From a virus (Duplodnaviria; Caudoviricetes), in the IMG/VR virus record IMGVR_UViG_3300023084_000034, positions 1-47,910 of that record: a stretch of DNA of 47,910 nucleotides; one strand, given 5' to 3'. The notes under the pieces are model-generated. The model did not search any database. It was given only the letters and a program-made list of their open reading frames with translations, and had not been told where the DNA came from. Below, piece by piece: positions 23,446 through 46,948 of the stretch (position 1 is its first letter; each line of letters begins with the position of its first letter). The position numbers and the translations under genes were made by a program.

Positions 23446-25047
23446 TTAGATAGATGCTAAATCTTTAACATAAATCTTACCATAGAATTCTGGTCTAACC
23501 ATTTTCTTAGCGTATCTTGTCATAACTCCTCTTCTTGGAGTGAAGTTAGTTGGGTCATACACTAATGGTGTCATGATTAGAGGTACATACGGAGCATATA
23601 CAGCACCAGTTTCTAAGAAGTTAGAACCTCTAAATCCTAATAAGATTTCGTTAGAAGTCATATAAGGATTTTTGTAAACAGTATATCTACTAGCTAAAGC
23701 ACCAACAGTAGTTACACCCGCTGCGAAAGACATTGCATCTTTATCAGCAGAAACTGTAAATCCTGGGATTGATTCTAAGATAGTACATACATCAGGAGAA
23801 GCAACGATAAAGTTAGCTCCACCTCTTAATGTTAATTGGTGAATCTTGTTAGATACTTTGTTAATTTTAGTACCTAAAGTTTGGAACCAAGTATTTTTCT
23901 GATATGCTTGTCCTGCAGTTGCAGAAGTCCATGCACTATTTACATACTCTTCACCAATAGTTGCTGACCAGTACTCAGTAGTTAATGCGTTAGAAGCTAA
24001 CATATCTAAGATTTCTAAGTCAATCTCTAATGAGATATAGTCAGATAACATAGAAGTTAACTCTGCTTCAGCATCAATACTGTGGTAAGCATTAAGGTCT
24101 TGTGCTAACTCAGGAGTCCACACAGCCTTTAGTTTTCTTGTCTTAGCAACGATTGCTTCAGACTTCAATTCTAAGTCTACTTCTGGGATTTGGATATCCG
24201 CATCAATAGATGAACCTCTTTGTGGTTTACCAGCTTCGAAGTCACCTCTTGCATAGTCAGAAGGTACTCTTGAATAGTTTACTGTAATTGCGTTTTGGTC
24301 AACAGCTACTTGAGAGAATACAAACGCAGTGATGTTTGTACCATCTGAAGAGTTAAATTGACTAAAGTTTACATTATCAGTAATGTCAGTACCAGAAATT
24401 CTGAAACTTCTTACTGCGTCTAAATCAGCGTTATCTAATTGAGTTGCAGCGAAAGTTACTTTTTGAACATCACCTGCAGCAACTGAAGCAGAAAGTACTG
24501 CGTCAAATCCTACATCAGCCCAAGAAGCAGAAGCCCAAGTCTGAGCACCAGTTGCAACAGAAGCAGTGAATTCGTTTACAGAGTATCCGTAAGAACCTGA
24601 ACCATAAAGACCACCTTGTGCAACATCAGTTGAACCTAAGTCCGCACCTGTACCACCGAATAATGAACCACCAGTACCAGTAGATTTTCCACCAGTTGCA
24701 GTTCCATACTTAAAGTCTAAATAAAAGATTAGACCTGAAGGTAAGTTCATTGGTTGAACAGAAACGAATTCTTTAGAAGCAATCTCACCAAAGATTCTTC
24801 TTACAAGAGGAAGGGCTACACCACTCCACTCTTCACTATTATTACCGACACCAGTTTGTGATGCCTCATCAAGCAATTGCTTTGCTTGGTTTTCTAAAAG
24901 AACGGCCATTGAGCCTTGTTCTTTTTCTCCTAAACCTTCAAGAAGTCCTGTGTTTTCCCATTTTCCTTTAAGTTGTCTTGTTTCATTCAACATTACAGTT
25001 TGTGGGTTCTTTCCTTCCATTAGTTTAGATAAATCAAAATTTGCCAT
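23446..25047 (-). CDS. gp23: Major capsid protein, T4 gp23-like
   Basis: LLENQ, LPLVRR, VSVQPMNLPSGLIFYL, AKTRKLKAVWTPELAQDLNAYHSIDAEAEL, GAVYAPYVPL and PRRGVMTRY motifs. Confidence 0.97.
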   Translation of the reverse strand: MANFDLSKLMEGKNPQTVMLNETRQLKGKWENTGLLEGLGEKEQGSMAVLLENQAKQLLDEASQTGVGNNSEEWSGVALPLVRRIFGEIASKEFVSVQPMNLPSGLIFYLDFKYGTATGGKSTGTGGSLFGGTGADLGSTDVAQGGLYGSGSYGYSVNEFTASVATGAQTWASASWADVGFDAVLSASVAAGDVQKVTFAATQLDNADLDAVRSFRISGTDITDNVNFSQFNSSDGTNITAFVFSQVAVDQNAITVNYSRVPSDYARGDFEAGKPQRGSSIDADIQIPEVDLELKSEAIVAKTRKLKAVWTPELAQDLNAYHSIDAEAELTSMLSDYISLEIDLEILDMLASNALTTEYWSATIGEEYVNSAWTSATAGQAYQKNTWFQTLGTKINKVSNKIHQLTLRGGANFIVASPDVCTILESIPGFTVSADKDAMSFAAGVTTVGALASRYTVYKNPYMTSNEILLGFRGSNFLETGAVYAPYVPLIMTPLVYDPTNFTPRRGVMTRYAKKMVRPEFYGKIYVKDLASI

Positions 25048-25074: not shown

Positions 25075-26223
25075 TTATTTGATATTAGCTAATTGCTTAA
25101 ATCTTTCAGCTAATGCATTTGTGTTTTCAGAAATAATTTCTTTTGCAGGAGCAGTAGAAGCAACTGGTTTAGATGCAGCTTCAGCTACAACTTTCTTAGT
25201 TTTTTTCTCAGTTCCTGTAAAATTCATTGATTCTGCTAACGTAGCGTAAACTAATTTTACTTCTCTAACAGATGATGTTCTGTCTAAGTTTTCAACAACT
25301 TTAGATTTTTGCTCATTGTTTAAGTTATAAGCTCTGAACAATCTATTAGCGTATAATAATTTTGCGTTTAATAGGTTTACTTCGTTGATAGTACCTTGTA
25401 AAGTTTTAATAGTAGCATATGCTTCTTCTAAATCTTTTTCAAGTTCTTCGTACTTTTCTTCCGTTTCTGAATCTTCGTGTTCTTCTTCAGAAACTTCTTC
25501 ATCATCTCCGTATCCCATTTCTCTAAGAATTTCATCTAAGTCGATTTCATCATCCATTTCATCTTCTTCTTCAGCTTCCACTTCATCAGCTTCTACTTCT
25601 TCTTCAGACTCATCTTCGATTTCATCTTCTTCATGAACTTCATCTTCTTCTTCGTGTACTTCTTCTTCAGAATCCATATCTTCTTCTTCAGATACTTCAT
25701 CTTCTTCTTCCATACCCATTTCGAGTTCTCTAATGATAGACTCTAAATCTAACTCATCTTCTTCTTCGATTTCTTCTTCTTCAGAGTGAATTTCTTCTTC
25801 TCCTTCTTCTTCAGAAATTTCAGCGTCATCAGCGTTAGTTGGGTCATCATATCCAACTCCATCCACTTCTTCGATTTCTTCTTCTTCAGATACTTCTTCT
25901 TCAGAGTGGTCACCTTCTTCTAACTCATCACCTACCTCTGCAGTTTCTTCTTCAGATTCAGGTCCAAGTTCGGTGTGTGCGTCAGATGCAACATTAGATG
26001 GTTCAACTGGAGATTCTTCATCACCGTCACCAATATCACTTGAATCCAATTCTTCCTCAACTTCTTCTTCACCTTCCATTTCAGCTTGTAGCTTTCTTGA
26101 TAGGATAGATTGTAATCTCGGAGTAAATGCTTCTTCAAGTGCAATCTTAGCGTTAGCGATAGCAGTTTCTCTTACAGCTTTAGCATCCGCAATTGCTTCT
26201 TTTAACAATTTTGAATTTGCCAT
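25075..26223 (-). CDS. Prohead scaffold/core protein (gp22-like), highly acidic
   Basis: Directly upstream of the capsid gene; long Glu/Asp-rich centre; coiled-coil C-terminus; many [LIV]-x-E sites. Confidence 0.75.
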   Translation of the reverse strand: MANSKLLKEAIADAKAVRETAIANAKIALEEAFTPRLQSILSRKLQAEMEGEEEVEEELDSSDIGDGDEESPVEPSNVASDAHTELGPESEEETAEVGDELEEGDHSEEEVSEEEEIEEVDGVGYDDPTNADDAEISEEEGEEEIHSEEEEIEEEDELDLESIIRELEMGMEEEDEVSEEEDMDSEEEVHEEEDEVHEEDEIEDESEEEVEADEVEAEEEDEMDDEIDLDEILREMGYGDDEEVSEEEHEDSETEEKYEELEKDLEEAYATIKTLQGTINEVNLLNAKLLYANRLFRAYNLNNEQKSKVVENLDRTSSVREVKLVYATLAESMNFTGTEKKTKKVVAEAASKPVASTAPAKEIISENTNALAERFKQLANIK

Positions 26224-26469: not shown

Positions 26470-27483
26470 TTATTTTATTTTTCCTTTTTTGATATCTCTT
26501 TCGAGTTCTTGTCCTGCACCTAATAAATCATTAATTGCATAATCTAATGGTACATTTCTATACTTAGCAAGTTTTCTAACTGCCATCATTACAATTCTTT
26601 TCTCTTCAGTAGAGTATCCTTCGTTTACTGATTCCGAAAATGATGTTTTGTTAAATTCATCTTGCACTTTTTTATTAGATTTGTTTTTCTTTATAAATTC
26701 TTGAAAAACTAATCCACCATCTTTCTTACCCAAATAATTTATAACTTCATCATGTAATTGTTTTAATGAATATCCTTGTCTATCATACTTATTTTGCATG
26801 ATTTTCATTAAATTACTGATATTATTTTCGTTTACCGATTCTTGAAATTGTTTGATAATTTTCTTTTGTTTAGGATTATTTGGTCTACCAGCAAGTGCGG
26901 CAACAAATTCCATTCTTTGGGGTAATCCGCCCTTTTCAACATATTTAAGAAGTTTAGTAAAATTCAATGCGTACTTAGAAACAAAATCCTCAACTGCTTC
27001 AGGTCTTGTACCTGTAAAGTAAGCAATCTTTTTGATTTGTGGTTCAATACCTTCGTTTACTGATTCTTCTACAAATCCTTTTTTCAAAAGTGCATTTCTG
27101 AAAGTTTCTAAATCCTTTTTGTTTTTGAAGATTTGGATTCCAAAGAAATCACTACCATCTTTGTGTTTTTGTTTTCCATCGTGGTAAGAGATTGTGTATT
27201 TAGCTTTACCAATACCATCTTGCTGTCTGAATCTTTTCTTGCCTTCACTTATTTCAGAGATAACTTTTTCTCTCATTATCTCTCTAACGATTTTTCTAAG
27301 TTGTTCTTTCATCTTTGGTAATCCTTTATGTTTTGTTGATGCGAAATCTTCAATCTCTTTTTCACTCATTCTATCCGCAATATCTTTTATTTCATCCGAA
27401 ACCTCTGAAGCAGGAACTTCACCTCTTTTGAATGCCAATGCTAAACCGAATAATTTTTGTTGTTGTTGAGATTGTGCAGGCAT
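26470..27483 (-). CDS. Modular putative internal head protein (337 aa); N-terminal DUF3008-like domain and three ESVNE-delimited modules
   Basis: MPAQSQQQQKLFGLALAFKRG...MSEKEIEDFASTKHKGLP resembles DUF3008 (from memory); three ESVNE sites. Confidence 0.75.
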   Translation of the reverse strand: MPAQSQQQQKLFGLALAFKRGEVPASEVSDEIKDIADRMSEKEIEDFASTKHKGLPKMKEQLRKIVREIMREKVISEISEGKKRFRQQDGIGKAKYTISYHDGKQKHKDGSDFFGIQIFKNKKDLETFRNALLKKGFVEESVNEGIEPQIKKIAYFTGTRPEAVEDFVSKYALNFTKLLKYVEKGGLPQRMEFVAALAGRPNNPKQKKIIKQFQESVNENNISNLMKIMQNKYDRQGYSLKQLHDEVINYLGKKDGGLVFQEFIKKNKSNKKVQDEFNKTSFSESVNEGYSTEEKRIVMMAVRKLAKYRNVPLDYAINDLLGAGQELERDIKKGKIK

Positions 27484-27487
27484 GGTA

Positions 27488-28075
27488 TTATGATTTTCTT
27501 TTTAGGTCTTTAACCACATCCTGAATTCTTTCAATTGCAATTTCTAAAAGGTCAATTGCTTCTAAAACACCATCTTCTTCTAACATTTCAAGTGCTTCTT
27601 CAAAATCAATTTTTACAATTTTTGGAAGATTTTTTAGGTCTCTTTCTAATTTTCTGTGTTGACCTTCTTTCAGTAAATCAGTTAGTTTGATTTCACTTTC
27701 TTTAAGAGTTACGGGGTAAGTTTTACCATTAAACTCAAATTCGGTTTTACCTTCTTCTTTTGCTTTTCTTGCTGCTTGAACAAATGCTCTACCTTCGTTT
27801 ACTGATAAATTTTCTCCTTTTAATTTATCTTTAAGTCTTTGCCACAAAGATTTTGCCTGTTTATGTGCAGGATGATTTTTATCTTTTATTGCAGTTGATA
27901 CTTTAACATCTCTTTTAGTTTCAGGATTTTTTACTGTCTTATCTTTTACAAAATCTGAAAGAGGTGGGACAACTCCAACTTTTTTCTTTTTCTTTGAACC
28001 ACCACCAAATGCTCCCATTTGTCTCATGGTGTGTTGTAATGCGGGATTTTCGTTAAGTATATCAGTTAGTTTCAT
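27488..28075 (-). CDS. Modular putative internal head protein (195 aa)
   Basis: Leader MKLTDILNE, internal LSVNE and IKLTDLLKE; shares a module with the 616-aa protein. Confidence 0.75.
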   Translation of the reverse strand: MKLTDILNENPALQHTMRQMGAFGGGSKKKKKVGVVPPLSDFVKDKTVKNPETKRDVKVSTAIKDKNHPAHKQAKSLWQRLKDKLKGENLSVNEGRAFVQAARKAKEEGKTEFEFNGKTYPVTLKESEIKLTDLLKEGQHRKLERDLKNLPKIVKIDFEEALEMLEEDGVLEAIDLLEIAIERIQDVVKDLKRKS

Positions 28076-28079
28076 AGTA

Positions 28080-28478
28080 TTAAAATAATTTTTTTAATTT
28101 AGTATCATCGTATGTTTTAGCGTAATACCATTTTTTATCTTTAGTATTGTATAGATAAACATAATCTGCACTAGCTTCATTTCCTGCGTTTCTTACATAA
28201 TCATCGATATTGTTAACATCACCTTTCATCGGTTTCATGTTTCCATAATATTCAATATCTTTATCATCATAAATACCACGAGCACCACCTTTTTTAATTA
28301 GTGTCATGACATCCTTTTCACCTTTCATATGTTTTTTCAAACCATCTTTCATATTAGATGGATATCCATCGAAATGAACATATACCGAAATAATCTTACC
28401 ACCTTTGATAAGACCAACTTGAGAACGAGTTCCTTCGTTTATTAAGTTTTCTGATAGTAAGTTTTTTAGTTTAATCAT
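28080..28478 (-). CDS. Hypothetical phage protein (YxHxDGYP motif) with a putative cleavable leader
   Basis: MIKLKNLLSENLINE followed by GTRSQVG...SVYVHFDGYP...YVYLY. Confidence 0.75.
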   Translation of the reverse strand: MIKLKNLLSENLINEGTRSQVGLIKGGKIISVYVHFDGYPSNMKDGLKKHMKGEKDVMTLIKKGGARGIYDDKDIEYYGNMKPMKGDVNNIDDYVRNAGNEASADYVYLYNTKDKKWYYAKTYDDTKLKKLF

Positions 28479-28483
28479 AGTAT

Positions 28484-29035
28484 TTATTTTTTTTCTCCAA
28501 GTCTTTGTTTCATAGTATCTGGGTCAATGTCAGAGATTTCATAATATCTACCTAAAATATGTCCCATATCTTCATACAATGAATGTAACCTTTCATCTAA
28601 TGCTCTTGCTTCTGCAGCAACTTTATCAAATGCTTTATCCATTTTATCCAACTCACTCATATTTCTTTTGATGGTTACTTTATCAAACCAATCACCAGCT
28701 TCAGAAAGAGTTAAGGTTTTAGCTGCCTCAACAACTCCACCTAATGTCTCTGCAGTTTCAACAATGTCGGATTGTCTTCCCATCTGCTCTTTGAAACCCT
28801 TGTAGGTAGAAATGATTTCTAAGAAATGTTTCTTAACTTCAGTTGCTAATGGTCTATCACCTTTTAGAGATTCTGAAATAGAAAATTTACCATCTACGAT
28901 TTTTACCTCATTGATGTTTGTTTTTCTAATATCGTTATATCCTTTAGATACTTTAGTACCTTGTTTGTTCTCAACTTTCAAACTAAATTTGTTGTTGTGA
29001 ACATAATCGTATATGTCAAAATTCTTTTTACTCAT
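28484..29035 (-). CDS. Hypothetical head-cluster protein (183 aa), helical C-terminus
   Basis: ORF track; coupled to the protease gene; contains NINE and ISE sites. Confidence 0.75.
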   Translation of the reverse strand: MSKKNFDIYDYVHNNKFSLKVENKQGTKVSKGYNDIRKTNINEVKIVDGKFSISESLKGDRPLATEVKKHFLEIISTYKGFKEQMGRQSDIVETAETLGGVVEAAKTLTLSEAGDWFDKVTIKRNMSELDKMDKAFDKVAAEARALDERLHSLYEDMGHILGRYYEISDIDPDTMKQRLGEKK

Positions 29036-29622
29036 TATGCTAACTCCGTTATAATTTCTCTCATTAAATCTTGTGCTTTACAAAAATCTCCACAAACATC
29101 AGTACCAATATTCTTAATTACTGATTCGTTCATTGGAGTCATAAATGCACCATGTGTAGATGGGTTGGATACAAAGTCCCAACCGATTAGTTCAAAATCT
29201 TCACCAACTAAAAGTTTGTTATCTTTCATTGGTTGAGTAGAACCCATACCTCTTGATGAGATACCTAAAAGGATTCCAGCCCTTAATAATTCTTTTAATA
29301 TATTTCCAGAAGGAGTAGGTAAGATTTCAACTGTACCTACAACATCGCTACCTTCCCAATGTACCTCTTTAATATTATGTGATACATTCTTTAAGTTGAT
29401 AACTGAAGAATCTGGGTGGTCTAATTCACCCAATGCTCTTCTTTCTTTGATTAGAGTTTGATATTTACCAATCTCTCTTTCTAATATTTCTTTTGGGTAC
29501 ACTCTACCATTTTGGTTTTCTGCACCTGCTCTTTGAAGGATACCTTTAACCATAGTTCTTCCCGATGAATCTTCATTCACTCTTCCTTCAAATAAGTTTG
29601 TTTCTATCAATAGGTTTTTCAT
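29035..29622 (-). CDS. gp21: Prohead core protease, T4 gp21-like
   Basis: NQNGRVYP, ALGELDHP, VSH, GISSRGMGS and DFVSNPSTHGAF motifs. Confidence 0.95.
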   Translation of the reverse strand: MKNLLIETNLFEGRVNEDSSGRTMVKGILQRAGAENQNGRVYPKEILEREIGKYQTLIKERRALGELDHPDSSVINLKNVSHNIKEVHWEGSDVVGTVEILPTPSGNILKELLRAGILLGISSRGMGSTQPMKDNKLLVGEDFELIGWDFVSNPSTHGAFMTPMNESVIKNIGTDVCGDFCKAQDLMREIITELA

Positions 29623-29633
29623 ATCGGTTATCC

Positions 29634-31484
29634 TTATTTATATTTTTTTAACAAATTTGTAAATTCCTTCTTTACACCAGAAGATAATCTTTTGTGTACA
29701 CCAACTTTTGCTAACATAGGAATTGCATCTTTCATTTGTGAATTATCAATTTGAATACCAGTTCTACTTCTTGCCATTAATGGTCTTTGTAAAAACATTC
29801 TTAATTCAAATGCTAACTCTGGACTAATGTTTACTCCTTCAACTCTTGAAGTTTCACCATTTTCAACACTCTTTAACAAAGATACCTTACCCAATCTTGC
29901 TTCGTTTACTGATTCTCCAATTAAAGAATCTACATCAGCATGGATATCTTTATAGTTATTAAACTTTTTACCTCTTAATGCACTATAAAGAGCCATTGTA
30001 TATTTTTGAGTATTATTGTGAGCTCTTGATTTTACTAAATCAACTGCACCAGTAATAGGATTTCCCTTTTGGATTGAATCAACTGCTGCTTTTAATGCTT
30101 TATAATCGTTAAATGCTTGTTCTTTTCTTCTATCTGTGATAACTTGAGTAATATAATCTTTTGCCTTACCCATATCACCTTTGAATTTATCTAAGATTTG
30201 TTGTGCACCTTTATCGTTTCTTTGTAATGCTCTTTCAAAGTTTCCGATTTGTACTTTTGCCAAACCTTTAGCATTGAAGTAATCTCTTTTATCAAAAGTA
30301 CCATATACTTTTTCAAAGGTAGAATCTTTTGATTTGAATTCTTCGTTTAAGTAGTTTTTACCTGCCAATCCACGAATCTTTCTTGCATCGGAAACCTTTA
30401 ATACTTCTCGTTTTGATATATCACTACCTTTTCTAATACTACGAGCACTATCCTCTGCATCTTTTTTTGAACCAGGTTTAGTCATTACAAATCCACCACC
30501 CTTTTCATGGAAATCAATTACTACATATTTGTCATCGTTCTTTGCTTCGTTTACTGATTCAAACTTGATTGATTTACCATATTTTTTTTGTAATTTTTTT
30601 ATCAATTCTTCTTTACTATCAGCAATTTCATTACCTCTTTCATATCCAAACTTTTGAATAGGTTTACCTGTTTTAGGGTTAAGAGCCGCCGTTAGTTCTC
30701 TAAATCCTTTATTATCACCAACGATTTGAACCATAGTATCATCATCTACTTTGATAGGTTTAGATACAGTTCTTGCTTCGTTTACTGATTCAGAACAACC
30801 ACCACATCCACAACTACAACTAGCTGATTCGTTTACTGATTCAACTAATTTTTCAACTTTTTCACCAACGGGTCTGCCGATAGTCATTGATACATAGAAT
30901 CCCATAGCCATCACTATATCCTTGCCATCCCATTTACAAATATTTGCAACATCCGGTCCTAACTCATAGTGGTAGTATTCTTCAACATCCTTAGCTGCCA
31001 TCGGGTCACCCTCATATTTTGCTCTTGGGAATAGTTTTGCAACTTTCTTAGCTTCCGAATGGAAATTAGCATCACTCAATGCTCCCATCAAAATATGCAT
31101 TACTGCAAACTGATGATTTGGTTTACCTTTAGTTAACTCTTTTAGATTTTTATCTAAAAGTTGTTTAACCTTTTTGTTCATATTAGCATCTTCGTTTACT
31201 ACTGATTCAACTTTGTAAGTTTTACCATCAACTTCGAATTCATCTTCACCCTTTTCTTTTGCAGCAACTACTGCTGCTCCGAAAGCATTACCTTCATTCT
31301 TTTCACCTTTTCCATTCCATGCTTTATCAATCTTATTAAAGAACTCTTTCTTTTCTTCATCAGACATTGATGGAATAGATTTTCCTGCTTTTTCTAAAGC
31401 TTTTCTAAAAAATACTTGATATTCAGATTCTTCTTTCAAAGTCTCTTTAACTATGTTTTTTAATTGCTCTCTGGTAATACTCAT
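29634..31484 (-). CDS. Modular putative internal head polyprotein (616 aa) with about 8 modules delimited by ESVNE/xNE
   Basis: ESVVNE, four ESVNE, YLNE and EKNE junctions; Lys-rich modules; directly upstream of the protease. Confidence 0.8.
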   Translation of the reverse strand: MSITREQLKNIVKETLKEESEYQVFFRKALEKAGKSIPSMSDEEKKEFFNKIDKAWNGKGEKNEGNAFGAAVVAAKEKGEDEFEVDGKTYKVESVVNEDANMNKKVKQLLDKNLKELTKGKPNHQFAVMHILMGALSDANFHSEAKKVAKLFPRAKYEGDPMAAKDVEEYYHYELGPDVANICKWDGKDIVMAMGFYVSMTIGRPVGEKVEKLVESVNESASCSCGCGGCSESVNEARTVSKPIKVDDDTMVQIVGDNKGFRELTAALNPKTGKPIQKFGYERGNEIADSKEELIKKLQKKYGKSIKFESVNEAKNDDKYVVIDFHEKGGGFVMTKPGSKKDAEDSARSIRKGSDISKREVLKVSDARKIRGLAGKNYLNEEFKSKDSTFEKVYGTFDKRDYFNAKGLAKVQIGNFERALQRNDKGAQQILDKFKGDMGKAKDYITQVITDRRKEQAFNDYKALKAAVDSIQKGNPITGAVDLVKSRAHNNTQKYTMALYSALRGKKFNNYKDIHADVDSLIGESVNEARLGKVSLLKSVENGETSRVEGVNISPELAFELRMFLQRPLMARSRTGIQIDNSQMKDAIPMLAKVGVHKRLSSGVKKEFTNLLKKYK

Positions 31485-31499
31485 AATTTTACTTCCTAA

Positions 31500-31934
31500 T
31501 TATAGTTCGGATATAGATGTTGCCATCCTTCTTAGTCTTTCTCTTATTTTGAATAAATGACTTTTAGTTCGTTTCCATTGTTGGTCTGAACTCAGTCCAC
31601 TTTCTTTCTTGATTTTTCCATACCAGTTTAAGAAAGATTCCATTTCACTAAGTTGTTTGTTTATGTTTCTGATTCCTACTCCTATTTTTTGTTTTGGAGT
31701 TCCTTCAGATTTTCTCAACTCATGCCAACGATTTTCATTAACTTTACTATAACCACTCACCTTAATAATATGGTCTACATCTGCTTCTGCCTCATCATCA
31801 GTTCCATCGGTGTCTGCGAAAGCATTAGGAGTATTATAACCTGCTACATTACCAGTAGTGGTTGCTTCATCAACTTCTAATTCTTCTTGCTCTATTTCTG
31901 CAATTAAATCTTCAATTAACTCCTTTAAGTTCAT
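31500..31934 (-). CDS. Hypothetical head-cluster protein (144 aa)
   Basis: ORF track; MNLKELIE leader, VDE|ATTTGNVAGYNTPNAF, KVNE. Confidence 0.75.
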   Translation of the reverse strand: MNLKELIEDLIAEIEQEELEVDEATTTGNVAGYNTPNAFADTDGTDDEAEADVDHIIKVSGYSKVNENRWHELRKSEGTPKQKIGVGIRNINKQLSEMESFLNWYGKIKKESGLSSDQQWKRTKSHLFKIRERLRRMATSISEL

Positions 31935-32878: not shown

Positions 32879-34636
32879 TTATTCATCAATCAAATTTGTG
32901 TCATCTAAAAAGTCTCCGTTTTCACTCATCAACTTTCGTTTTGAAGAAACCCCATTAACATATTCCCGTGCAACTTTTTGTGTTCTTTTACTAATTTTTG
33001 ATTCGGTCTTTGATAATGCTTTTTGATTTTCCTTTTTACCTAAAGGGTCTCTACCATAAGGATGTTTATCTTTTCCATAGGTGTTTCCCTCTCTTGGTCT
33101 ACCACCTTTGTTTTTTAGTTCAGTTTTTAATTCTTCTAATTCATCTTCAACATCAGTTGGGTCTTGTTCCATTGCTGGGTCATTACCTTCATCTTCAATT
33201 GAACGATATCTAAATCTATCTTTAAGGTCATTGATAAGTTGCTCTTTTTGGAAATCAACCTCATCTTCACTAAAGTTAAATATATTTTTGTATGCCCAAT
33301 CTTTAGATACCATATTTAATTGTTGAATATCGGAAACCAATCTAACTTTCTCACTCCAAAGATTTACTTTTTCTTGTTCATAAATCGTAGATGGGTTTAC
33401 TAAGTCTAATTCAAAGTCCACCATTTCAGGTCCGTCAATACCTTGAGCAGCTAAGTGAGTTACTGCAATCTTAGTTAATTCTGAAATAAGAGTTCTTTGG
33501 ATTCTTTCGATTGTTCTTGCGAATCTTACATCTTCTGCAGCAAGAGTTGCTTTACCATTTACATTCTCATCATATCCCAAATATGCTTTTGGAATTTTAA
33601 GAGCCGCAAATAGTTTGTTTTTTAAGTAATCGATATCATCAATTGCTGTGTATTCCAATCCACCCAATGAATCAATTTCAGTACCACTATCACCACCCCT
33701 AACAGGTAAGAAGAAATCTTCAGTTAGGTTTTGGATATTATACTTTAAGTTATAATCACCAGTCTTTTTGTCCACAAATGGAGTTTTCTTCATTTTGGTG
33801 ATAATCTTCTGCATATAGTTATCAACTTCTTGTGGTGGAATGTTCCCAATATCAATTTTGAAAACTCTCTTATCGGGTGCTCTCATAATTCTATGAATTA
33901 ACATAGCATCTTCCATAAGAGAAACTTGTTTCCAAATTCTTCTACCATTTTCAATCATTGCCTTTCCATATGGTAAGAAGTTAGTATCAGATAATAATCT
34001 AAAATGTACTACTTCATAGTTTTCATATTCACCTTTTCCTGCGGGGTCATGGTTTAATTTGAACTTTACATAATTTGAATTATTTGGGTCAGTATTTTCT
34101 ATTCTTTCCAATTCATAAACTGGAAGTGGTCTTACATTTATAATACCAACACCTGGTTGTATTTCTTGTAGTAAAAAGAAATCACCATACTTAACCATAT
34201 TACGAGTCCAAGACCAAAGGTTGAACTCAATATTAAGAATATCATAGAAAAGGTTTTCTAAAATTTCTTTTATTTTTTCGTTTTTTGATTTGATTTGTAC
34301 AACTTCACCGAATTCGTTTTTAAGTGTACATTCATCTGCGTATATATCTAATGCCGATGAGATAATTGGGTCATTATCCATTGCATCATAATCTCTGAAT
34401 AGTTCTCTACGAACTTGATGGTATGCCATCGATTGAGCTGCCATCTGGTCTCCATAAAAAGACCTTTGTAGTTTGGTGTACCTATCTCTTATGTTCATAA
34501 GGTTAGTACCACCTTGTTGCCTATCATCTATATCAACAACTTTTCTCTTTCCATCCTTGTCAACCTTTACGATTGCTTGGGTAGAAAAGAGTTTCGTTAA
34601 TCGATTAAAAAATGAACTATTGTTTTGTTCTGCCAT
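32879..34636 (-). CDS. gp20: Portal protein, T4 gp20-like
   Basis: LMEDAMLIHRIMRAPDKRVFKIDIGN, EDFFLPVRGGDSGTEIDSLGG and DIDYLKNKLFAALKIP motifs. Confidence 0.96.
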   Translation of the reverse strand: MAEQNNSSFFNRLTKLFSTQAIVKVDKDGKRKVVDIDDRQQGGTNLMNIRDRYTKLQRSFYGDQMAAQSMAYHQVRRELFRDYDAMDNDPIISSALDIYADECTLKNEFGEVVQIKSKNEKIKEILENLFYDILNIEFNLWSWTRNMVKYGDFFLLQEIQPGVGIINVRPLPVYELERIENTDPNNSNYVKFKLNHDPAGKGEYENYEVVHFRLLSDTNFLPYGKAMIENGRRIWKQVSLMEDAMLIHRIMRAPDKRVFKIDIGNIPPQEVDNYMQKIITKMKKTPFVDKKTGDYNLKYNIQNLTEDFFLPVRGGDSGTEIDSLGGLEYTAIDDIDYLKNKLFAALKIPKAYLGYDENVNGKATLAAEDVRFARTIERIQRTLISELTKIAVTHLAAQGIDGPEMVDFELDLVNPSTIYEQEKVNLWSEKVRLVSDIQQLNMVSKDWAYKNIFNFSEDEVDFQKEQLINDLKDRFRYRSIEDEGNDPAMEQDPTDVEDELEELKTELKNKGGRPREGNTYGKDKHPYGRDPLGKKENQKALSKTESKISKRTQKVAREYVNGVSSKRKLMSENGDFLDDTNLIDE

Positions 34637-34667: not shown

Positions 34668-35075
34668 TTACCATGCTTTACAACTCCAATACCTTGCCTT
34701 ATGTCTTGGACCAGGACTATCACAGTTGTGTCTTGCTCTAAATGCTTTTTTTCTTTCAGGATTGTCCTTCTTTATCTTCATGGTTTCCTCACCTGCCTTT
34801 TTTGCAGATGAACCACCATGTCCGAAGTTAACCTTTACAACATTTCCCTTTGGATTCTTAACATATACTTTGAACTTCTTAACATCACCCTGCATTGGTT
34901 TATTAAGTTTTACTTCCCTACCTTGATATTCTGCTTCATTAACATCCTCTTTCATGTTTTTTAGAAATTGGATAAACTCTTTCAAATCGTGGTAGTTTTC
35001 TACATCATACTCTTCGATACCTTCATCTAAAAATGACTTGAATTCTTTGTAAAGTTCTTCAGAATAATTTTCCAT
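34668..35075 (-). CDS. Conserved phage protein (DUF6321-like basic C-terminal domain) with an acidic leader ending DVNE
   Basis: KFKVYVK...VKVNFG...RKKAFRARHNC...ARYWSCKAW; family name from memory. Confidence 0.7.
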   Translation of the reverse strand: MENYSEELYKEFKSFLDEGIEEYDVENYHDLKEFIQFLKNMKEDVNEAEYQGREVKLNKPMQGDVKKFKVYVKNPKGNVVKVNFGHGGSSAKKAGEETMKIKKDNPERKKAFRARHNCDSPGPRHKARYWSCKAW

Positions 35076-35124: not shown

Positions 35125-36705
35125 TTATAACCATTTAGTTAAATCTTCAGAGTCATCTCCGATTTGCATTTGCCAAGGGTTTTCATCGTTATCATTTCCA
35201 CCATATACCCCACTATAAGTATAAGATGAAATACTGTTAATTGCTTGTTTAGTTAGGTCAATACCCTCCTGTCTTAAACGAAGTGCGGTATCTCTTACCC
35301 ATAGTGAAATAGCAAGAGACATTGTAAGGTCATCGTTATATCCTCTCATTGCCTCTGCTCTACCATTTAACCATATAAATGTAAATAGTTCTTCAATAGT
35401 TCTGATTGAACGAATGATGATTGATTTTTCCCTTACATACTCTTCTAACTTAGAAATAATTAGAGGTCGAGTTCTTGCTGTTGTTGAGAATCCAGCAACC
35501 ATACCCCTATCCTGTGCTCTATATTTATTTGAAAGTTGATTTTCAACATCTACATATTTCAAATCTTTACTCATGTAGTATAAGTTAGGATAGTTTCTAT
35601 CAATAACTTGTTGAATACATGCCCAACCAATATTTGCGTTTTCAATTACTAATAGTGCGTTATTATATTCAGTTGCTAATGCTACTAAGAAGTTTCCAAA
35701 ATCTTTCGTATCTAACTTACCTCTATATTCTGCAACTTGTTCCGAATCTTCTACATCAATGACATGAGCAGCAGAGTAATCCGATGAATCACCTCTCGCA
35801 ACATCGGCAACTACCATATAAGATTTTGTATAATCTGGAAACTGCCATTTCCATAAGTTACCATCAAATCCAGTTTTCTCTAAAGGTTCTTGTACATAAG
35901 TTTCTTTATAGAACTGAAGTATTTGTGGTTCGATTACGGAATCTCCAGAAGATACAAAATCACAATCACATTCTTGTGCTGCTCCTTTTGGTCCTAATAA
36001 TGTTTCTTGCTCATCTCTCCAACTTTGGTCTCTTTCAGGATGAACTGACCAATGTAGTCTAATATGATTAAATCCATTTGTTCCCTCTTCAGAACCTACC
36101 CAAGTTTTGTGGAAAAAGTTACCCACACCATTTGGTGTTGAAAGGATAATTGCGTTACCACCAGTTGAAAGGGTAGATTGTGCTGATACCCAAATCTCTT
36201 CAATCTTATCGATGAATGCTGCCTCATCAAATACAAGTAGGGATAGTGCTTCAGAACGACCTGCATCTCCTGCTGCTGAAGTTGCTTTTATCTGAGAACC
36301 ATTTGCATATCGTAGGGATAGTTTGTTATCTTCTATGGTTGTTAATTTTAACCAACTTGGTAAATATTGATTCATTACTCGAACCTTTGTTACCAAGTTT
36401 TTAGCAACCTCTTGTTTAGTTGCAATTACAAGAACATTAAAATCTTGATTGAATAACATCTTCCATAAGGAGAATCCTGCAGTTAAAGTAGATATACCAG
36501 TTTGTCTTGATTTAAGAATGATATTATATCTGTGTTCTGTGAATTGGTCTAAAGTTTCTTCTTGGAATGGGTATAAGTGAAAAGGAATTTTACCACGAAC
36601 TGGGTGTTGTATCATACAATACTTTTTCATAAAGTATATAGGGTCTGATGCACACTTCTGGTACTCTTCCTTTATAATTTCTTTTAATGTTTTTTTCTGT
36701 GCCAT
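35125..36705 (-). CDS. terL: Terminase large subunit, T4 gp17-like
   Basis: LYPFQ, Walker A KSRQTGIST, Walker B LLVFDEAAF, ILSTPNG, nuclease VADVARG...DYSA, IENAN and DDLTMSLAI. Confidence 0.96.
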   Translation of the reverse strand: MAQKKTLKEIIKEEYQKCASDPIYFMKKYCMIQHPVRGKIPFHLYPFQEETLDQFTEHRYNIILKSRQTGISTLTAGFSLWKMLFNQDFNVLVIATKQEVAKNLVTKVRVMNQYLPSWLKLTTIEDNKLSLRYANGSQIKATSAAGDAGRSEALSLLVFDEAAFIDKIEEIWVSAQSTLSTGGNAIILSTPNGVGNFFHKTWVGSEEGTNGFNHIRLHWSVHPERDQSWRDEQETLLGPKGAAQECDCDFVSSGDSVIEPQILQFYKETYVQEPLEKTGFDGNLWKWQFPDYTKSYMVVADVARGDSSDYSAAHVIDVEDSEQVAEYRGKLDTKDFGNFLVALATEYNNALLVIENANIGWACIQQVIDRNYPNLYYMSKDLKYVDVENQLSNKYRAQDRGMVAGFSTTARTRPLIISKLEEYVREKSIIIRSIRTIEELFTFIWLNGRAEAMRGYNDDLTMSLAISLWVRDTALRLRQEGIDLTKQAINSISSYTYSGVYGGNDNDENPWQMQIGDDSEDLTKWL

Positions 36706-38112: not shown

Positions 38113-41100
38113 CTATTCGTAAAATAACCCAAGAATCTGATTAAGAGGTGCGAAGGTTCCAGTTAGTTTGAAAGTTTTTCCACCATATACGAATACAATT
38201 CCCTCATTTGGTACAATTTTATCTTTCCCACCAATTGCGTTTAATCGTTCTAACTCTAATTTAAGTTTAGTAATCTTTTTTGGGTCACCTGATTTTCTTA
38301 CATCTTTAATAGTTTGGTCTAACCTTTTCTTCATATCCCTAACTGCTTTATCAGGATTTGCTGCAAGTACTGAACTCATAAAGGATAAGATGTCTGCACC
38401 GATACCTAAGAAGATATCTTCGAATGGTCTGATGTTATCCTTAGCCATCTTAGCATGGTCATTCTTATCAATTCCCTTTGCCCACTCTAAGGTTTTTTCA
38501 TCAGGTAAATTCTTCTTATCTAATCTGAATGATTTATCATAGAATGCCCATCTCTTCACCAATCCCATTAGAGTTCTATTATCTAATTTAGATGGTGATT
38601 TTTTAGTTACGAAATCCATCCAAAATGCCTGATGATAATCTGCTATTCCATCAGTATCCTTCAACTTAAACTTAGATTGAAGTTTTGATATCTGTGAGTT
38701 ATACTTTCCTTTTAATTTTGCTAAATCTTTCGATTTAGGTAATTCATTGATTGGAGGTCCTTGGATTGTGTATGCCGATTGTACATCTGCGTTTACTTGT
38801 TTAATCATTCCTGCGAGTATTTTTGCCGCTTCCTGATTTTCTCCAATGGCGATTCCTTCCTCGTTATATTCCATAGTCCCATGAAATACAAGTAGTGCTT
38901 GACCATAAGGTATTACATTAACAGAAGTTGGATAGATAACTTCTAAATTCATAAAACATGCTCCACCTTTGAAGATTTTCTCTCTTTGTTTCTCCGAAAG
39001 TTTTGAAATAGCTTGGGTTAAATCTTTCATTGCGAAGTTGTATGCCTTTTCCAATTCTCCTCTACCCGCAAACTTCATTGCTACACCATTGATATCTAAA
39101 GCATTTTCCCCTTTGTTTTTCAAATGTCCTTTGTTTCTTGCTGCAACTAATCTTCCATCTCTCCAACTAACTGCTAATGCTTGTCCATCGGTCTTTTCTC
39201 TTGCTAATTCCAAGTTCCCTTCTAAAGCACGATTTACAATATCTTTTAATTGTCCAAAAGTTAAATTGATTTCGGTATCAAATGGGTGATTCATATGTCC
39301 ATACGCACCTCCTTCCAAAATCAATGATTCAGTAATACCACCACCTAATGCAGGTTCGTAGTATTTCTCTTTTGGTTCTTTATTAAATTTCTTTCTTAAT
39401 TTCTTTAAGTCTTTTTCATGGTCATCTATCCATTTTTGGTCTGGATATCCATGTGGAGCAATTTCATCCAATTCATCATCTCCTAAACTTTCTCTATCTG
39501 GTGTTGATTGTATGTTACTCTTAAACATCACATATTCAGAAAGTGAACCATATTTAATAATTAACTCACCTAACACTTCCAATCTACCCATCTCTTCTTG
39601 AAATTCAATATCATCCATATTGAAATTAATCTTTGAGTGAGTTTCTTCAAATTCTTTTTTGGCAGACTCTAAATCAAAGTTTCCATTTGCAGCCTTTTCA
39701 TAGTATGGAAGTTTTACATTAAAGTGATGATGTGTCAATAATGAATCACCCCCCTTTTCTTTTGCAGTATTAGATATTTTTTCAGCACCATCACCTCTAC
39801 CATCTGCAAAATTATTGAACTTACTTGAATCAATATTTTCTTTAATAATTTTATCTTTTGCCAATAAGTGAACTAACTCAGCACCAATATAATCAGGACT
39901 TTCTCCTCTATGCCACTTTCCATGGTCTTTCATATATTTATCTGATAAGAATTCAATCTTATCTTCATAATCCATTTTATTGATTTTTGCTCTATTTTTA
40001 TATGCCCACTTTTTGAAATCCATATAGAAAAAACTATTTACTTCTTCTTCAATAGTAGCAAGTTTGGTATAGTATTTTGGGTCTTCATAAAGATGGTCTA
40101 ATGCGATTTTTTCTGCAACACTCTTATCAGAAGTGTGTTCCATTTCTACATTAATACCCATTTGTAATTCCTTATCTAAATCATCAATATCTACCTTGTG
40201 CATATTTGCAATATCGTAAATATCCATTCCCTTTGCTAATTGTTCGAATTTATATTCAGGAGAAGAAGTTTTGAAATCATCTTTTCTCATTACCGTTTTA
40301 GCAATTACTTTATTTGCCTGCTTCATAAACGGAATATTGATTTTACTTCTATTATCTTTTGCTACAATTTGTCCATATAAGTTAAGGAAATTAACAAATT
40401 CTTTTTTCTTCTTTCCCAATCTTTTGAAAAATCCGATTAGTTCTGCTGATGATATTGGTTTCTTATTTCTTGGGTCGGTTAATCTATCGAAGAAATGTTT
40501 ATCAGTTAAAACCACATCAACTGGATTAAGTTGTTTATCTGCGTATTGGTCAATCTTAACCAAATCTGCCATTGGGATTTCATTGATTGTTCCCTCTTTT
40601 AAGATTCTAAAGTTTACAACCTTTCTACCATTAATTGTTGGCATACCATACTCATCTTTACCAATTGATTTAACAACCGTCTTTTTGTTTTTGAATCTAC
40701 CTGTTAGAATTGTATCACCTACATTTACTGGAAGATTGATATCCTCATTTATGTTTTGAGATTTTTTCCATTGTTCTAATGCTGGTAGATTATATTGTTT
40801 TGATTGGTTATCAAATCCACAATTGTGGCATAGATATTTTTCGGTATCATTAATATCAATTTCCCAACTATGACTACATTTTTCACAATTAATAGTTGTA
40901 TCTATATTTGTGGTCTTATATGTTTCATGTAGTGATTTCCCAACTTCCCCCTTTTCTTTATTCAAATCTTTTAATGATTCTTCTCTATCATCTTCTAATT
41001 CAATAAAGTCAACAAGTGAATAACCAACTAATCCAGCAACTCGTGTTACATGCTTGAACCATTTATTGTATGCGTTAGAACCATAGAAATCTTTTTGGTT

Positions 41101-42000
41101 AGTTGCAGTTGTTTTACCTGCAACACCTGCGGGGTATGGGGTTACTGCCTTTACAGGTCCATCAGGATAAATTGGATGTGGGTCAATATCGGTAAGTTCA
41201 TCACTCATAATTTGAGATAAAACACTATATCCTATTTCTTCTGCTCTCTTTTGAGAAACTTTATCAAATGTTGAATATGATGGGAATAAAAAGTTTGGAC
41301 CATCATCTACTGCGGTTTTACCCATAGTTGATGATGCTTCTTTGATTAAATCAAGATTTTGAACTAACCAATTTTCTACCACCTCTTTTGGAATAGTAAA
41401 TTCTTCATTTAATGTATTGGTTATAAAATCAAATACTTTTTTATCAAACTTTGGATATGCTCGTTTGGTAAAGAAATCCTTTTTATCTTCATCTGAACCT
41501 GATGATAATCCTTTACGAACTTCGGTTCCACTAATTGGATTAGATTGTTGAGGTGCAATATAAACATACCCCTTACCTTCATATCCTTCAAAATCTAAGT
41601 TATCTTTATAAGGTGTAAAGTATTTACCACCCAATCTACTTGCATCTTTTTTACCTACAACAGTAATGAATGCCGTTGTATCTTTGTCAAACTTATTTAG
41701 TACTTCTTTTGGTGCGTAAGGATTTTTAACTTGAACGATTTTGTTTTGTGGAATTCCAAACATCTTAGTAATAATCATCACCTTCTCTTTGAAGTTGAAA
41801 GGTGATTTATCATTATCGGTTTTATTAGATGTACCGATATAAACATTGTCCTTTCCGAACTTTTTTACTAAATGTTGGTAGGTTGCATAATGACCCTTAT
41901 GAAAAGGTTGAAAGCGACCAGAGTAAACCACAACTTTGTTGTCTACACTGTCCGCTTCCCCTAATATACTCTCTACTAAGAATTGAGATAGTTCGTTCAT
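38113..42000 (-). CDS. Mosaic protein (1295 aa): HxGH (cytidylyltransferase-like) nucleotidyltransferase, Zn ribbon, DUF5661-like module, C-terminal KxDG ligase-like domain
   Basis: SGRFQPFHKGH and ISGTEVR; CEKC...CHNC; ELQMGINVEMEHT...IALDHLYEDPKYYTKL; EKTDG...LEVI...EGIVF...FKLTG. Confidence 0.8.
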   Translation of the reverse strand: MNELSQFLVESILGEADSVDNKVVVYSGRFQPFHKGHYATYQHLVKKFGKDNVYIGTSNKTDNDKSPFNFKEKVMIITKMFGIPQNKIVQVKNPYAPKEVLNKFDKDTTAFITVVGKKDASRLGGKYFTPYKDNLDFEGYEGKGYVYIAPQQSNPISGTEVRKGLSSGSDEDKKDFFTKRAYPKFDKKVFDFITNTLNEEFTIPKEVVENWLVQNLDLIKEASSTMGKTAVDDGPNFLFPSYSTFDKVSQKRAEEIGYSVLSQIMSDELTDIDPHPIYPDGPVKAVTPYPAGVAGKTTATNQKDFYGSNAYNKWFKHVTRVAGLVGYSLVDFIELEDDREESLKDLNKEKGEVGKSLHETYKTTNIDTTINCEKCSHSWEIDINDTEKYLCHNCGFDNQSKQYNLPALEQWKKSQNINEDINLPVNVGDTILTGRFKNKKTVVKSIGKDEYGMPTINGRKVVNFRILKEGTINEIPMADLVKIDQYADKQLNPVDVVLTDKHFFDRLTDPRNKKPISSAELIGFFKRLGKKKKEFVNFLNLYGQIVAKDNRSKINIPFMKQANKVIAKTVMRKDDFKTSSPEYKFEQLAKGMDIYDIANMHKVDIDDLDKELQMGINVEMEHTSDKSVAEKIALDHLYEDPKYYTKLATIEEEVNSFFYMDFKKWAYKNRAKINKMDYEDKIEFLSDKYMKDHGKWHRGESPDYIGAELVHLLAKDKIIKENIDSSKFNNFADGRGDGAEKISNTAKEKGGDSLLTHHHFNVKLPYYEKAANGNFDLESAKKEFEETHSKINFNMDDIEFQEEMGRLEVLGELIIKYGSLSEYVMFKSNIQSTPDRESLGDDELDEIAPHGYPDQKWIDDHEKDLKKLRKKFNKEPKEKYYEPALGGGITESLILEGGAYGHMNHPFDTEINLTFGQLKDIVNRALEGNLELAREKTDGQALAVSWRDGRLVAARNKGHLKNKGENALDINGVAMKFAGRGELEKAYNFAMKDLTQAISKLSEKQREKIFKGGACFMNLEVIYPTSVNVIPYGQALLVFHGTMEYNEEGIAIGENQEAAKILAGMIKQVNADVQSAYTIQGPPINELPKSKDLAKLKGKYNSQISKLQSKFKLKDTDGIADYHQAFWMDFVTKKSPSKLDNRTLMGLVKRWAFYDKSFRLDKKNLPDEKTLEWAKGIDKNDHAKMAKDNIRPFEDIFLGIGADILSFMSSVLAANPDKAVRDMKKRLDQTIKDVRKSGDPKKITKLKLELERLNAIGGKDKIVPNEGIVFVYGGKTFKLTGTFAPLNQILGLFYE

Positions 42001-42463: not shown

Positions 42464-43216
42464 CTATAAATTTTCGTAATCTATTGTTGTTACACCTCTC
42501 TTTTGTACAACTTGTGTTGAACAACGATTACCAAACTGTATTGATTTTGAAACATCTTCGGAATCTAAGAACTCTTTCACAAATCCTGCTACAAAAGTAT
42601 CACCTGCTCCTGAGATGTCCATTATCTCTACTTTTTCAGTTGGATATGATGTACCCTTGTACATACACCCATCTTTATCTAATGTAATTATTAACTTTTC
42701 TAAAATCCAATCGTTTTCTTCAATAAATTTTTTATTATTTTCAAATTCAGTTCGATTGAGTTTTATGAATCGTAAATCCTTACACCAATCACCCAACTTT
42801 TTCTTTGTATCACAAATTACATTTGGGTGTTTGAATCCAATATATGCTATATCTTCTTCGGTCAGAAATCCTTTGTTGTAATCTGAAACTACAACCATTT
42901 GATATTCCCAAAAATCTAACTTAGGTAATCTATCACCTATGTTATCAATATTTTTTTCTTCATCAATTCTTAGAAGTAAAGTGTTTGATGGTTCGTGAAT
43001 GTGTCTTGTCTTTGTGATTGGAGATTGTTGATGTTCAAAATCTACATCAACTCCTAATGCTGTTAAATTACCCATTACATTCATTCCCATTCCACCATTG
43101 TAAACTTCTCTCGTTGGAATAAATACAGGAGCAGGACCTTCGGGTGAAAGTCTTGGTGTATCTCCATAAATGAAGATATCATCACATTGTTCTCCTATTA
43201 ATAATATTCTACTCAT
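42464..43216 (-). CDS. hldA: D-glycero-D-manno-heptose-7-phosphate kinase (HldE/RfaE kinase domain, PfkB family)
   Basis: RLSPEGPAPV (cf. RISPEAPVPV), ITKTR, LLRIDEE, VSDYNKG and the PfkB signature DISGAGDTF. Confidence 0.85.
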   Translation of the reverse strand: MSRILLIGEQCDDIFIYGDTPRLSPEGPAPVFIPTREVYNGGMGMNVMGNLTALGVDVDFEHQQSPITKTRHIHEPSNTLLLRIDEEKNIDNIGDRLPKLDFWEYQMVVVSDYNKGFLTEEDIAYIGFKHPNVICDTKKKLGDWCKDLRFIKLNRTEFENNKKFIEENDWILEKLIITLDKDGCMYKGTSYPTEKVEIMDISGAGDTFVAGFVKEFLDSEDVSKSIQFGNRCSTQVVQKRGVTTIDYENL

Positions 43217-46915: not shown

Positions 46916-46948
46916 AACAAATTTATTTATAGTGTGAATACACCACAA

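Follow-up and report, generated by a model that had tools for sequence, protein, structure and literature searches.

Strings of mostly basic modules joined at glutamate-ended sites, probably cut by the prohead protease, in a T4-like phage

Genes on both sides of the prohead protease gene in the window (the whole stretch of DNA analysed, 47,910 nucleotides) probably encode polyproteins of small, mostly basic modules that are swapped at glutamate-ended joints, packed into the prohead and cut there by gp21; the pieces would then be carried into the next host. The system would be a polyprotein variant of the T4 internal proteins. The genes of the locus are as follows.

26470-27483, minus strand: geneB, a 337-aa polyprotein of 5 modules with an N-terminal DUF3008 domain (ORF and profile match)
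27488-28075, minus strand: 195-aa gene, with a short leader ending in ILNE followed by 3 modules
28080-28478, minus strand: 132-aa gene, with a 15-aa leader ending in LINE and a phrog_1987 domain; part of the same system, without the 15-mer
28484-29035, minus strand: conserved 183-aa gene, with added modules in some relatives
29035-29622, minus strand: gp21-type prohead protease (Peptidase_S77/gp21, profile match)
29634-31484, minus strand: geneA, an 8-module polyprotein of 616 aa; lies upstream of gp21 in the slot of T4 gp67/gp68
31500-31934, minus strand: conserved 144-aa gene; relatives reach 887 aa here and carry as many as 4 ESVNE joints

A late-promoter-type word, TATAAATA, lies just upstream of the gp21 gene. 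The product of the geneA slot ranges from 65 to 711 aa in relatives; its 64-aa N-terminal module is conserved and its interior is variable. geneB begins with an 80-aa module, and the 195- and 132-aa genes begin with leaders of 9 and 15 aa. The source phage is uncultured; its closest isolate is Flavobacterium phage immuto (vB_FspM_immuto), in which ORFs of the head region also have ESVNE/LNE joints.

The commonest joint is a 15-bp word, GAATCAGTAAACGAA, which encodes ESVNE. The six exact and three near copies listed in the initial annotation were all recovered. They are in frame in three ORFs (29634-31484, 27488-28075 and 26470-27483) on both sides of gp21, and the six exact copies all lie on the minus strand, which the annotation did not give. 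In this search, which also returned the single-mismatch copy at 26827-26841, shuffled sequences yielded no match (0 of 100). These copies and three joints of other sequence are listed with the alignment ends that fall on them.

26620-26634, minus strand: exact linker (ESVNE), geneB; 11 alignment ends; end of a 207-bp indel relative to locus L007
26827-26841, minus strand: linker with 1 mismatch (TCG), geneB; 7 alignment ends
27052-27066, minus strand: exact linker, geneB; a contig from run X23 fuses it with the copy at 30777
27244-27252, minus strand: ISE joint, not the 15-mer, at the end of the geneB N-terminal module; 19 alignment ends; 75-bp indel relative to L007
27794-27808, minus strand: linker with 2 mismatches (LSVNE), 195-aa gene; 9 alignment ends
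29901-29915, minus strand: exact linker, geneA; 9 alignment ends
30342-30350, minus strand: LNE joint, not the 15-mer, geneA; 6 alignment ends
30546-30560, minus strand: exact linker, geneA; 2 alignment ends; a loose contig end here
30777-30791, minus strand: exact linker, geneA; carries alignment ends; in the X23 contig join
30828-30842, minus strand: exact linker, geneA; carries alignment ends
31191-31208, minus strand: linker with a one-codon (3-base) insertion (ESVVNE), geneA; 13 alignment ends
31293-31301, minus strand: KNE joint, not the 15-mer, at the end of the conserved geneA N-terminal module; 61 alignment ends at 31288-31300

An additional x-E joint lacking the 15-mer occurs at about 27695. 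The genome-wide scan that the annotation proposed was run on five related records; a degenerate form of the word occurs 1-3 times per record, mostly in the head region (8 of 9 occurrences).

Comparison of orthologous loci and metagenomic contigs reveals rearrangements among relatives, including gain, loss and transfer of modules. All nine copies of the word bear alignment ends, 64 of 208 in total on 7.8% of the bases. Locus L007 lacks exactly the 207 bp that lie between two copies, within DNA that is otherwise 88-97% identical. Blocks of two window genes abut in L011 and L013, overlapping across the repeat, and in both loci the module at 27665-27793 of the 195-aa gene sits after a geneA module. 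Among relatives, 89 ESVNE junctions comprise 75 distinct left-right pairs. The proposal that modules are gained, lost and shuffled at the repeat is borne out by the L007 indel, the two block fusions and the diversity of pairs, but not as a property of the repeat alone; x-E joints other than the 15-mer hold more alignment ends (103 of 208, counting seven joints that were picked after the data were seen), and 41 ends fall at no joint. The most frequent breakpoint is the KNE at 31293; this joint does not conform to [LIV]xE, and the sole conserved module ends at it. At the protein level, 254 of 560 breakpoints lie more than 5 residues from an [ILV]xE. Recombination through the word is very probable.

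A 732-base contig from run X23 differs from geneA at 1 position in 686 bases and then continues in frame into a geneB module through 16 shared bases; it is a single contig of depth 3.6 with a short side of 44 bases, and is possibly a library chimera. The same geneA-geneB join appears in run X5 as an 11-base loose end. Most loose-end joins, whose short sides measure 18-32 bases, are left out of the evidence.

The modules of the window are 17-147 aa long with the linker counted in. Most are Lys-rich, as initially described, and net basic; three are net acidic. Net positive charge characterises 55 of 67 module families, and Lys makes up 15.8% of module residues vs 7.0% of the G002 proteome. The modules are under purifying selection, with a median dN/dS of 0.10-0.64 in all 20 families tested. 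The 80 loci yield roughly 150 sequence clusters, almost none with a family name; the family counts are approximate because the clustering lumps some short pieces together (families F4 and F16).

Database searches of the modules return few names. Pfam and PHROGs (125 pieces, mostly from 151 representatives) and NCBIfam (30 pieces) matched no module to a known effector family. The names returned are DUF3008, DUF5872, DUF7717, unnamed PHROGs, weak EF-hand-like matches and two stand-alone neighbours (a DNA methylase and S21). For geneA, 50,697 GenBank phage records yielded no match, and a PDB sequence search with alignment A3 and the C-terminal part of a 1295-aa protein gave nothing significant. 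For two modules, the ESM Atlas produced leads at 0.90 and 0.78, with recognition low. The best VIA Z of the phrog_1987 model is 4.7, and its matches are uncharacterised viral proteins only. The two-module model has no Foldseek match at E<=0.001; its best Z is 6.4 (rmsd 1.6 over 56 residues), to a common arrangement. AcrIF5 was rejected as a match for this model, with a Z of 4.9 that is not above background.

Homologues of DUF3008 and NMNAT occur in the virion proteome of cyanophage S-SCSM1, a proxy for packaging; the S-SCSM1 DUF3008 match is limited to the first 61 residues of geneB, at 46% identity. The word encodes a site at which this phage's head protease likely cuts, so that the strings probably enter the capsid and are separated into their modules; packaging of the polyproteins in the prohead, taken by itself, is quite likely. 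That the modules are injected and act on the host, for instance in counter-defence, is a tentative suggestion with somewhat less than an even chance. An improbable but serious alternative is that the proteins serve as accessories of the prohead core, as T4 gp67/gp68 do, or as basic filler that condenses DNA; after cutting at the joints they would be cleared from the head or kept only as charge neutralisers, with no host target. Against this role, modules can be lost or exchanged, and yet selection conserves each of them. Both modules that were modelled are predicted to form compact domains, and module bodies avoid internal cut motifs, which clearance would not need.

The protease of the window matches PF03420 (E 7e-28) and PDB 5JBL (E 2e-18). 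Residues H69, S122 and S123 are invariant in 12 of 12 aligned sequences, and the catalytic His and Ser are taken to be among these three. The catalytic domain is flanked by VNE on its N side and by MNE/S on its C side (the slash marks the predicted cut). This MNE/S aligns with ITE/S of T4 gp21, and 3 of 11 relatives have VNE/S. The protease's own site is M/V/L-x-E where that of T4 is ITE.

Cleavage of the joints by gp21 is likely, given these and other indirect signs. An [LIV]xE stands directly N-terminal to the phrog_1987 domain in all 38 homologues that hold the domain start, with varied leaders; ten tripeptides occur there, and in every one the third residue is an invariant Glu and the first is hydrophobic. 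The predicted structure of the 132-aa gene product has a disordered leader and a fold that begins after the Glu, and predicted folds start or break at the joint. Within 67 module bodies, [ILV]xE occurs 30 times vs 42 expected (p=0.018), while [ILV]xD and [ILV]xK are enriched.

The annotation had given the T4 gp21 rule as [L/I/V]-x-E. L and I agree with the rule in the available text of PMC9026906 (L/I-X-E), from which V is absent. The repeat reads V-N-E and the variant joints I/L-x-E, so that V in the putative cut motif is an extrapolation from the T4 rule. This gap, together with the expectation that any mosaic protein breaks at domain borders, favours ESVNE as an uncut, tolerant linker, in which insertions survive only between domains and breakpoints cluster without processing. 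Such a linker is very unlikely: it would not account for the invariant residues in the 38 homologues, for the same motif closing short leaders and flanking gp21's own domain, or for its depletion in module bodies.

The codons of the word are more uniform than codon usage predicts. In 80 relatives, the exact word occurs at 59 of 108 distinct ESVNE sites, against an expected share of 0.04-0.09. In sets that reuse no module family, about 18 of 36.5 sites are exact. All 5 cases of the ESVTE variant have ACC, a rare codon. Copies resemble each other more within a locus (0.53, 124 pairs) than between loci (0.315; permutation p=0.0005). Within the window, 7 of 8 other VNE sites use different codons, as first reported; the eighth, in the capsid gene, also has GTAAACGAA. 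An origin of the identical codons in codon bias or repeat misassembly is refuted: GAA, TCA, GTA and AAC are common codons, but even codon-pair bias lifts the expectation only to 0.087 against an observed share of about 0.5, and contigs from independent runs cross window copies without change, those of run X1, for example, over 26477-27240 and 30550-31500 with 0 differences.

The excess DNA identity of the repeat beyond codon bias does not amount to a special constraint on the DNA. At homologous junctions, the synonymous divergence of the word is close to that of its flanks (0.058 vs 0.093; 0.21 vs 0.23), so that conservation at the DNA level, as initially proposed, stands for identity above codon bias (59 of 108 vs about 9%) and fails for constraint; a divergence equal to background, named at the outset as contrary evidence, is partly seen. 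The word can change at the DNA level, and joints can do without it. These values bear on a further reading, in which the 15-mer is the sequence-specific site of a dedicated recombinase and the locus an integron-like array. Crossovers do map to the word, its Val codon is GTA at 104 of 108 sites and its first Glu codon GAA at 108 of 108. A 16-mer form occurs in an estimated 660 or so IMG/VR stretches, with the coding frame as the longest open frame at 160 of 166 sites. Even so, this reading is slightly less probable again than the uncut linker. Five related records, one of them complete, contain no tyrosine recombinase (PF00589, 0 of 5) or reverse transcriptase, and two of the five have RecA-family genes. 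Many crossovers fall at degenerate joints, word drift is similar to flank drift, conservation stops 1-3 bases past the word, and the word is not palindromic by inspection. The word resembles a protease site that short-homology recombination has spread rather than a recombinase target. The record nearest to the window, G001, overlaps the region at its capsid end only.

Under the preferred reading of cleavable, swappable strings, related phages gain, lose and transfer modules between genes at Glu-ended joints. The ESVNE peptide would likely be fixed by selection for the cut site, and the codons of the word were likely spread and homogenised by crossovers between its copies, probably through the phage's ordinary RecA/UvsX-type or microhomology recombination. 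Every such crossover would preserve the frame and give the incoming module a cut site on either side. The strings would then enter the prohead, where the neighbouring gp21 would cut them, and the freed pieces would be carried into the next host.

Known systems share parts of this arrangement. The T4 and T-even proteins IPI-III and Alt are similar in having a gp21-type protease, Glu-ended sites, small, basic, unrelated cargo and hypervariable content; the available text of PMC12373910 reports that Ip1-3 inhibit distinct GmrSD enzymes. The protease family and the small basic products agree with the window, but each T4 internal protein has its own gene and begins with a capsid targeting sequence of 10-19 residues that ends in Glu, whereas here an ORF holds up to 8 modules (8 in geneA, 5 in geneB) in a late head cluster. 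No internal protein family appeared in the Pfam/PHROG search of module pieces. T-even IP loci are thought to shuffle via flanking repeats (Repoila 1994, cited in PMC2839356); those repeats are promoter-based elements, whereas here the crossover word is the coded cut site. The PeSL cassettes of RB49 and phi1 also have short conserved linkers, at which T4-type recombination inserts, deletes or replaces ORFans without a known integrase (PMC2839356, as far as its available text goes). PeSLs are intergenic, combine a promoter with a stem-loop and move whole genes, whereas all nine copies here are inside ORFs and 15-16 coding bases move domains within and between genes.

Polyvalent proteins, as described in the available text of PMC5512222, are likewise multi-domain, variable in architecture and predicted to be packaged in virions and processed into units. 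They differ in carrying an embedded MPTase and recognisable enzyme domains; neither MPTase nor hallmark conflict domains were found by Pfam, PHROG or NCBIfam in the three genes or in 125 representative modules, and that text mentions neither a recurrent DNA joint nor prohead-protease sites that separate the domains. The phiKZ and SPN3US ejection proteins have S/A-X-E or A-X-E sites, many head proteins cut after Glu and C-terminal self-cleavage of the protease; in the available text of PMC9026906 and PMC5694885, their cuts trim propeptides and release no arrays of swappable modules. No description of repeat-jointed prohead-protease polyproteins was found in the largely open-access full-text literature covered.

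A broader and more speculative reading, about one chance in three in our view, is that a widespread aquatic T4-like clade holds an integrase-free cassette library, in which one coding word may be both crossover point and maturation cut site, any module inserted at the word may be loaded, released and injected, and more than 100 module families may form an untapped set of injected counter-defence or host-takeover proteins that near-identical strains continue to recombine. Should the cut sites prove real, the joints would mark the exact borders of mature, virion-delivered small proteins where gene callers see long hypothetical ORFs, and a direct screen for injected counter-defence proteins becomes possible. 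Capsid cargo would then evolve at the sub-gene level, with frame and processing site restored at each crossover, and the arrangement may offer a design hint for loading capsids with multiple cargoes.

The genes from terminase to capsid make up the head and packaging region of a phage of T4-like type, and all lie on the minus strand. Among isolates, the capsid protein has its top match in Flavobacterium phage vB_FspM_immuto (53%). Among the 24 metagenome runs listed, 23 salt-marsh runs and one seawater run contain the stretch.

Genes of the head and packaging region
35125-36705, minus strand: terminase
32879-34636, minus strand: portal
Between portal and geneA, minus strand: two conserved unknown genes
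29634-31484, minus strand: geneA
29035-29622, minus strand: gp21 protease
Between gp21 and the 132-aa gene, minus strand: 183-aa unknown gene
Between the 183-aa gene and geneB, minus strand: 132-aa and 195-aa genes
26470-27483, minus strand: geneB
25075-26223, minus strand: acidic scaffold-like gene, assigned by position and composition
23446-25047, minus strand: gp23 capsid gene

In some relatives, a stand-alone insert precedes the scaffold gene, either a DNA methylase gene (L078:8420-9739) or a ribosomal protein S21 gene (L077:9869-10138). A heptose-type sugar cluster (42464-46948, minus strand) adjoins tail fibre assembly and comprises a PfkB kinase, a cytidylyltransferase, GT9 and a glycosyltransferase-methyltransferase fusion. 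Across the 30 minus-strand ORFs of the window, Ser is almost never encoded by AGC (3/1104), a hint that a restriction or modification motif is being avoided.

The 15-bp repeat encoding ESVNE separates modules of 17 to 147 aa, linker included. The six exact copies and one single-mismatch copy reported in the initial annotation are borne out, on the minus strand (0 matches in 100 shuffles), and the LSVNE and ESVVNE near copies are present and in frame, like all other copies. A 12-residue Cys/Gly-rich peptide (30777-30842, minus strand) is flanked by two exact copies; similar CGCG peptides occur in many relatives.

Modules move at the repeat. Their gain and loss with breakpoints there, as initially predicted, is seen in relatives. 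Between geneB and the related locus L007, a 207-bp indel is delimited by the 26827 and 26620 copies, with 88-97% identity in the DNA around it; a second indel, of 75 bp, lies at an ISE joint without the 15-mer. In loci L011 and L013, the module directly after a geneA module is one from the 195-aa gene, and both blocks overlap across the repeat. The blastn alignments end at every one of the nine copies (64 of 208 ends, on 7.8% of bases). Seven other Glu joints, picked after seeing the data, hold 103 ends on 4.2% of bases, 61 of them at a single KNE joint; 41 ends lie away from all these joints. The 310 unique cargo-region proteins have 560 breakpoints; 306 of them fall no more than 5 residues from [ILV]xE (null 106), and 131 no more than 5 residues from ES[VIL]xE (null 26). 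The 89 ESVNE junctions comprise 75 distinct left-right pairs, and some module families, F9, F14 and F23 included, are each spread over three or four classes of host gene. Of the 20 loose contig ends listed, out of 38, ten lie within 10 bases of a repeat copy, on 6% of the stretch. Over 686 bases, a 732-base contig from run X23 differs from geneA at one position; through 16 shared bases it then continues, in frame, into the end of the second module of geneB. This join may be a library chimera because contig depth is 3.6 and the short side is 44 bases; in run X5 the join is represented by a loose end of 11 bases.

The best 80 of 598 gp21-bearing IMG/VR stretches (79-97% identity) were used for comparison. 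Together with the window they contain 125 ESVNE sites, 108 with distinct context, and 59 of these 108 carry the exact 15-mer. The expected share is 0.04-0.06 by plain codon use and 0.087 by a codon-pair model. Random sets without reuse of any left or right module family have a mean of 18.3/36.5 exact sites and a minimum of at least 36%. In ESVTE variants, ACC, one change from AAC, is used in 5/5 (background 12%). Because the exact share exceeds codon expectation, also in the no-reuse sets, and because of the ACC in ESVTE, the copies are of common ancestry at the DNA level. The claim that other VNE sites in the window use different codons holds for seven of eight; one also has GTAAACGAA.

Copies with unrelated flanks show 0.20 synonymous differences per codon (saturation expectation 0.44). 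For copies homologous on both sides (24 pairs) the values are 0.058 in the repeat and 0.093 in the flanks; for those homologous on one side (139 pairs) they are 0.21 and 0.23. The proposed DNA-level conservation thus stands as identity above codon expectation, but the repeat is not frozen and diverges near the flank rate. Within a locus, 0.53 of 124 copy pairs are identical, against 0.315 between loci (p=0.0005). Such a pattern is more in keeping with recombination that spreads and homogenises the copies than with a protein-recognised site. The presumed C-terminal site of gp21 itself (29110-29135, minus strand) is identical to the 15-mer over its first 10 bases and could be a source or partner of the linker.

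A genome-wide scan, as initially suggested, covered five related records; the degenerate repeat occurs one to three times in each, and 8/9 occurrences are in the head region. An IMG/VR 16-mer scan finds at least 131 loci (about 660 stretches estimated), 104 of which have a head gene or an already seen module, and ESVNE is in the longest open frame at 160/166 distinct sites. ESVNE, ESLNE and related joints also occur in immuto, in ORFs close to head genes. No tyrosine recombinase or reverse transcriptase was found in the five related records (one complete), and two, the complete one included, have a RecA-family gene; nothing in these records points to a recombinase specific to the repeat.

T4 gp21 cleaves L/I-X-E sites behind the Glu, a rule stated without V at the first position, and it trims Alt at ITE and LTE (PMC9026906, PMC5694885). 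Four results point indirectly to cleavage at the joints. First, the domain start is included in 38/45 homologues of the 132-aa protein, and the three residues before it are [LIV]xE in 38/38, in ten forms and with varied leaders. Second, in the AlphaFold model of this protein, residues 1-14 are disordered and the fold begins directly after the leader Glu; for a two-module stretch of geneB, the prediction has two domains and lower confidence at the linker (pTM 0.52). Third, [ILV]xE is depleted inside 67 module bodies (30 vs 42 in shuffles, corrected for circularity; p=0.018), [ILV]xD and [ILV]xK are enriched, and the proteome of the related record G002 is at 1.08. Fourth, the C-terminal MNE|S of gp21 aligns with ITE|S of T4 gp21 (PDB 5JBL) and is VNE|S in 3/11 relatives; VNE also lies on the N-terminal side of the catalytic domain.

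Similar architecture occurs in other genes. A 1295-aa protein (38113-42000, minus strand) combines an NMNAT-like domain at its N terminus with DUF5661 and a conserved, EKTDG-containing domain at its C terminus; this last domain has no database match and is presumably ligase-like. The protein is modular at x-E joints similar to those of the cargo genes, and most of the blocks by which its relatives (1048 and 1490 aa) differ have their ends at such joints or close to them; its gene contains no 15-mer copy. A 135-aa gene between terminase and portal (34668-35075, minus strand) is probably a further leader and cargo gene, since its phrog_7595 match begins at a VNE motif (residue 43 onward). Further gene clusters with short MI(K/S/Q)L...E leaders are found in G002:C1 (207191-209210 and 227682-231517), and some have modules in common with the head-region polyproteins.

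The modules are real proteins: each of the 20 families tested, some from few pairs, has a median dN/dS in the range 0.10-0.64. Family and structure searches of module sets found no known function for any module. The best available link to the virion is by proxy: the DUF3008 start of geneB has a match in ORF93 of S-SCSM1, whose annotation is virion protein, and the nearby NMNAT is reported from the S-SCSM1 virion proteome (PMC9602691). Most modules are net basic (55/67). The main rival reading is a core or DNA-condensing role without a host target. Each of the T4 proteins Ip1-3 blocks a different GmrSD enzyme (PMC12373910), and phage NAD reconstitution includes NMN ligation; by analogy with both, a counter-defence role is plausible.

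The system works like that of the T4 internal proteins, whose loci are also thought to shuffle via flanking repeats (PMC2839356, available portion). Unlike in T4, one gene holds many modules and the crossover point is the coded, putative cut site; for these reasons it is not a member of that system. Polyvalent proteins, as described in part of PMC5512222, have an embedded peptidase, unlike the window polyproteins. No passage on such polyproteins was found in the available text of the Far-T4 paper (PMC4360716), and no printed description of repeat-jointed prohead-protease polyproteins was found in the full-text literature searched, whose coverage is limited.

The repeat, its excess DNA identity, rearrangement at joints and selection on modules are directly supported. 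A TATAAATA word of the T4 late-promoter type lies directly upstream of gp21. The polyprotein genes would be expressed late, and their products would be loaded via N-terminal leaders and cut by gp21. The dual-use element initially proposed survives in a weaker form: the 15-mer would serve both roles, but as the commonest of a family of Glu joints. Crossovers at short homologies would preserve the reading frame and leave a cut site at either side.
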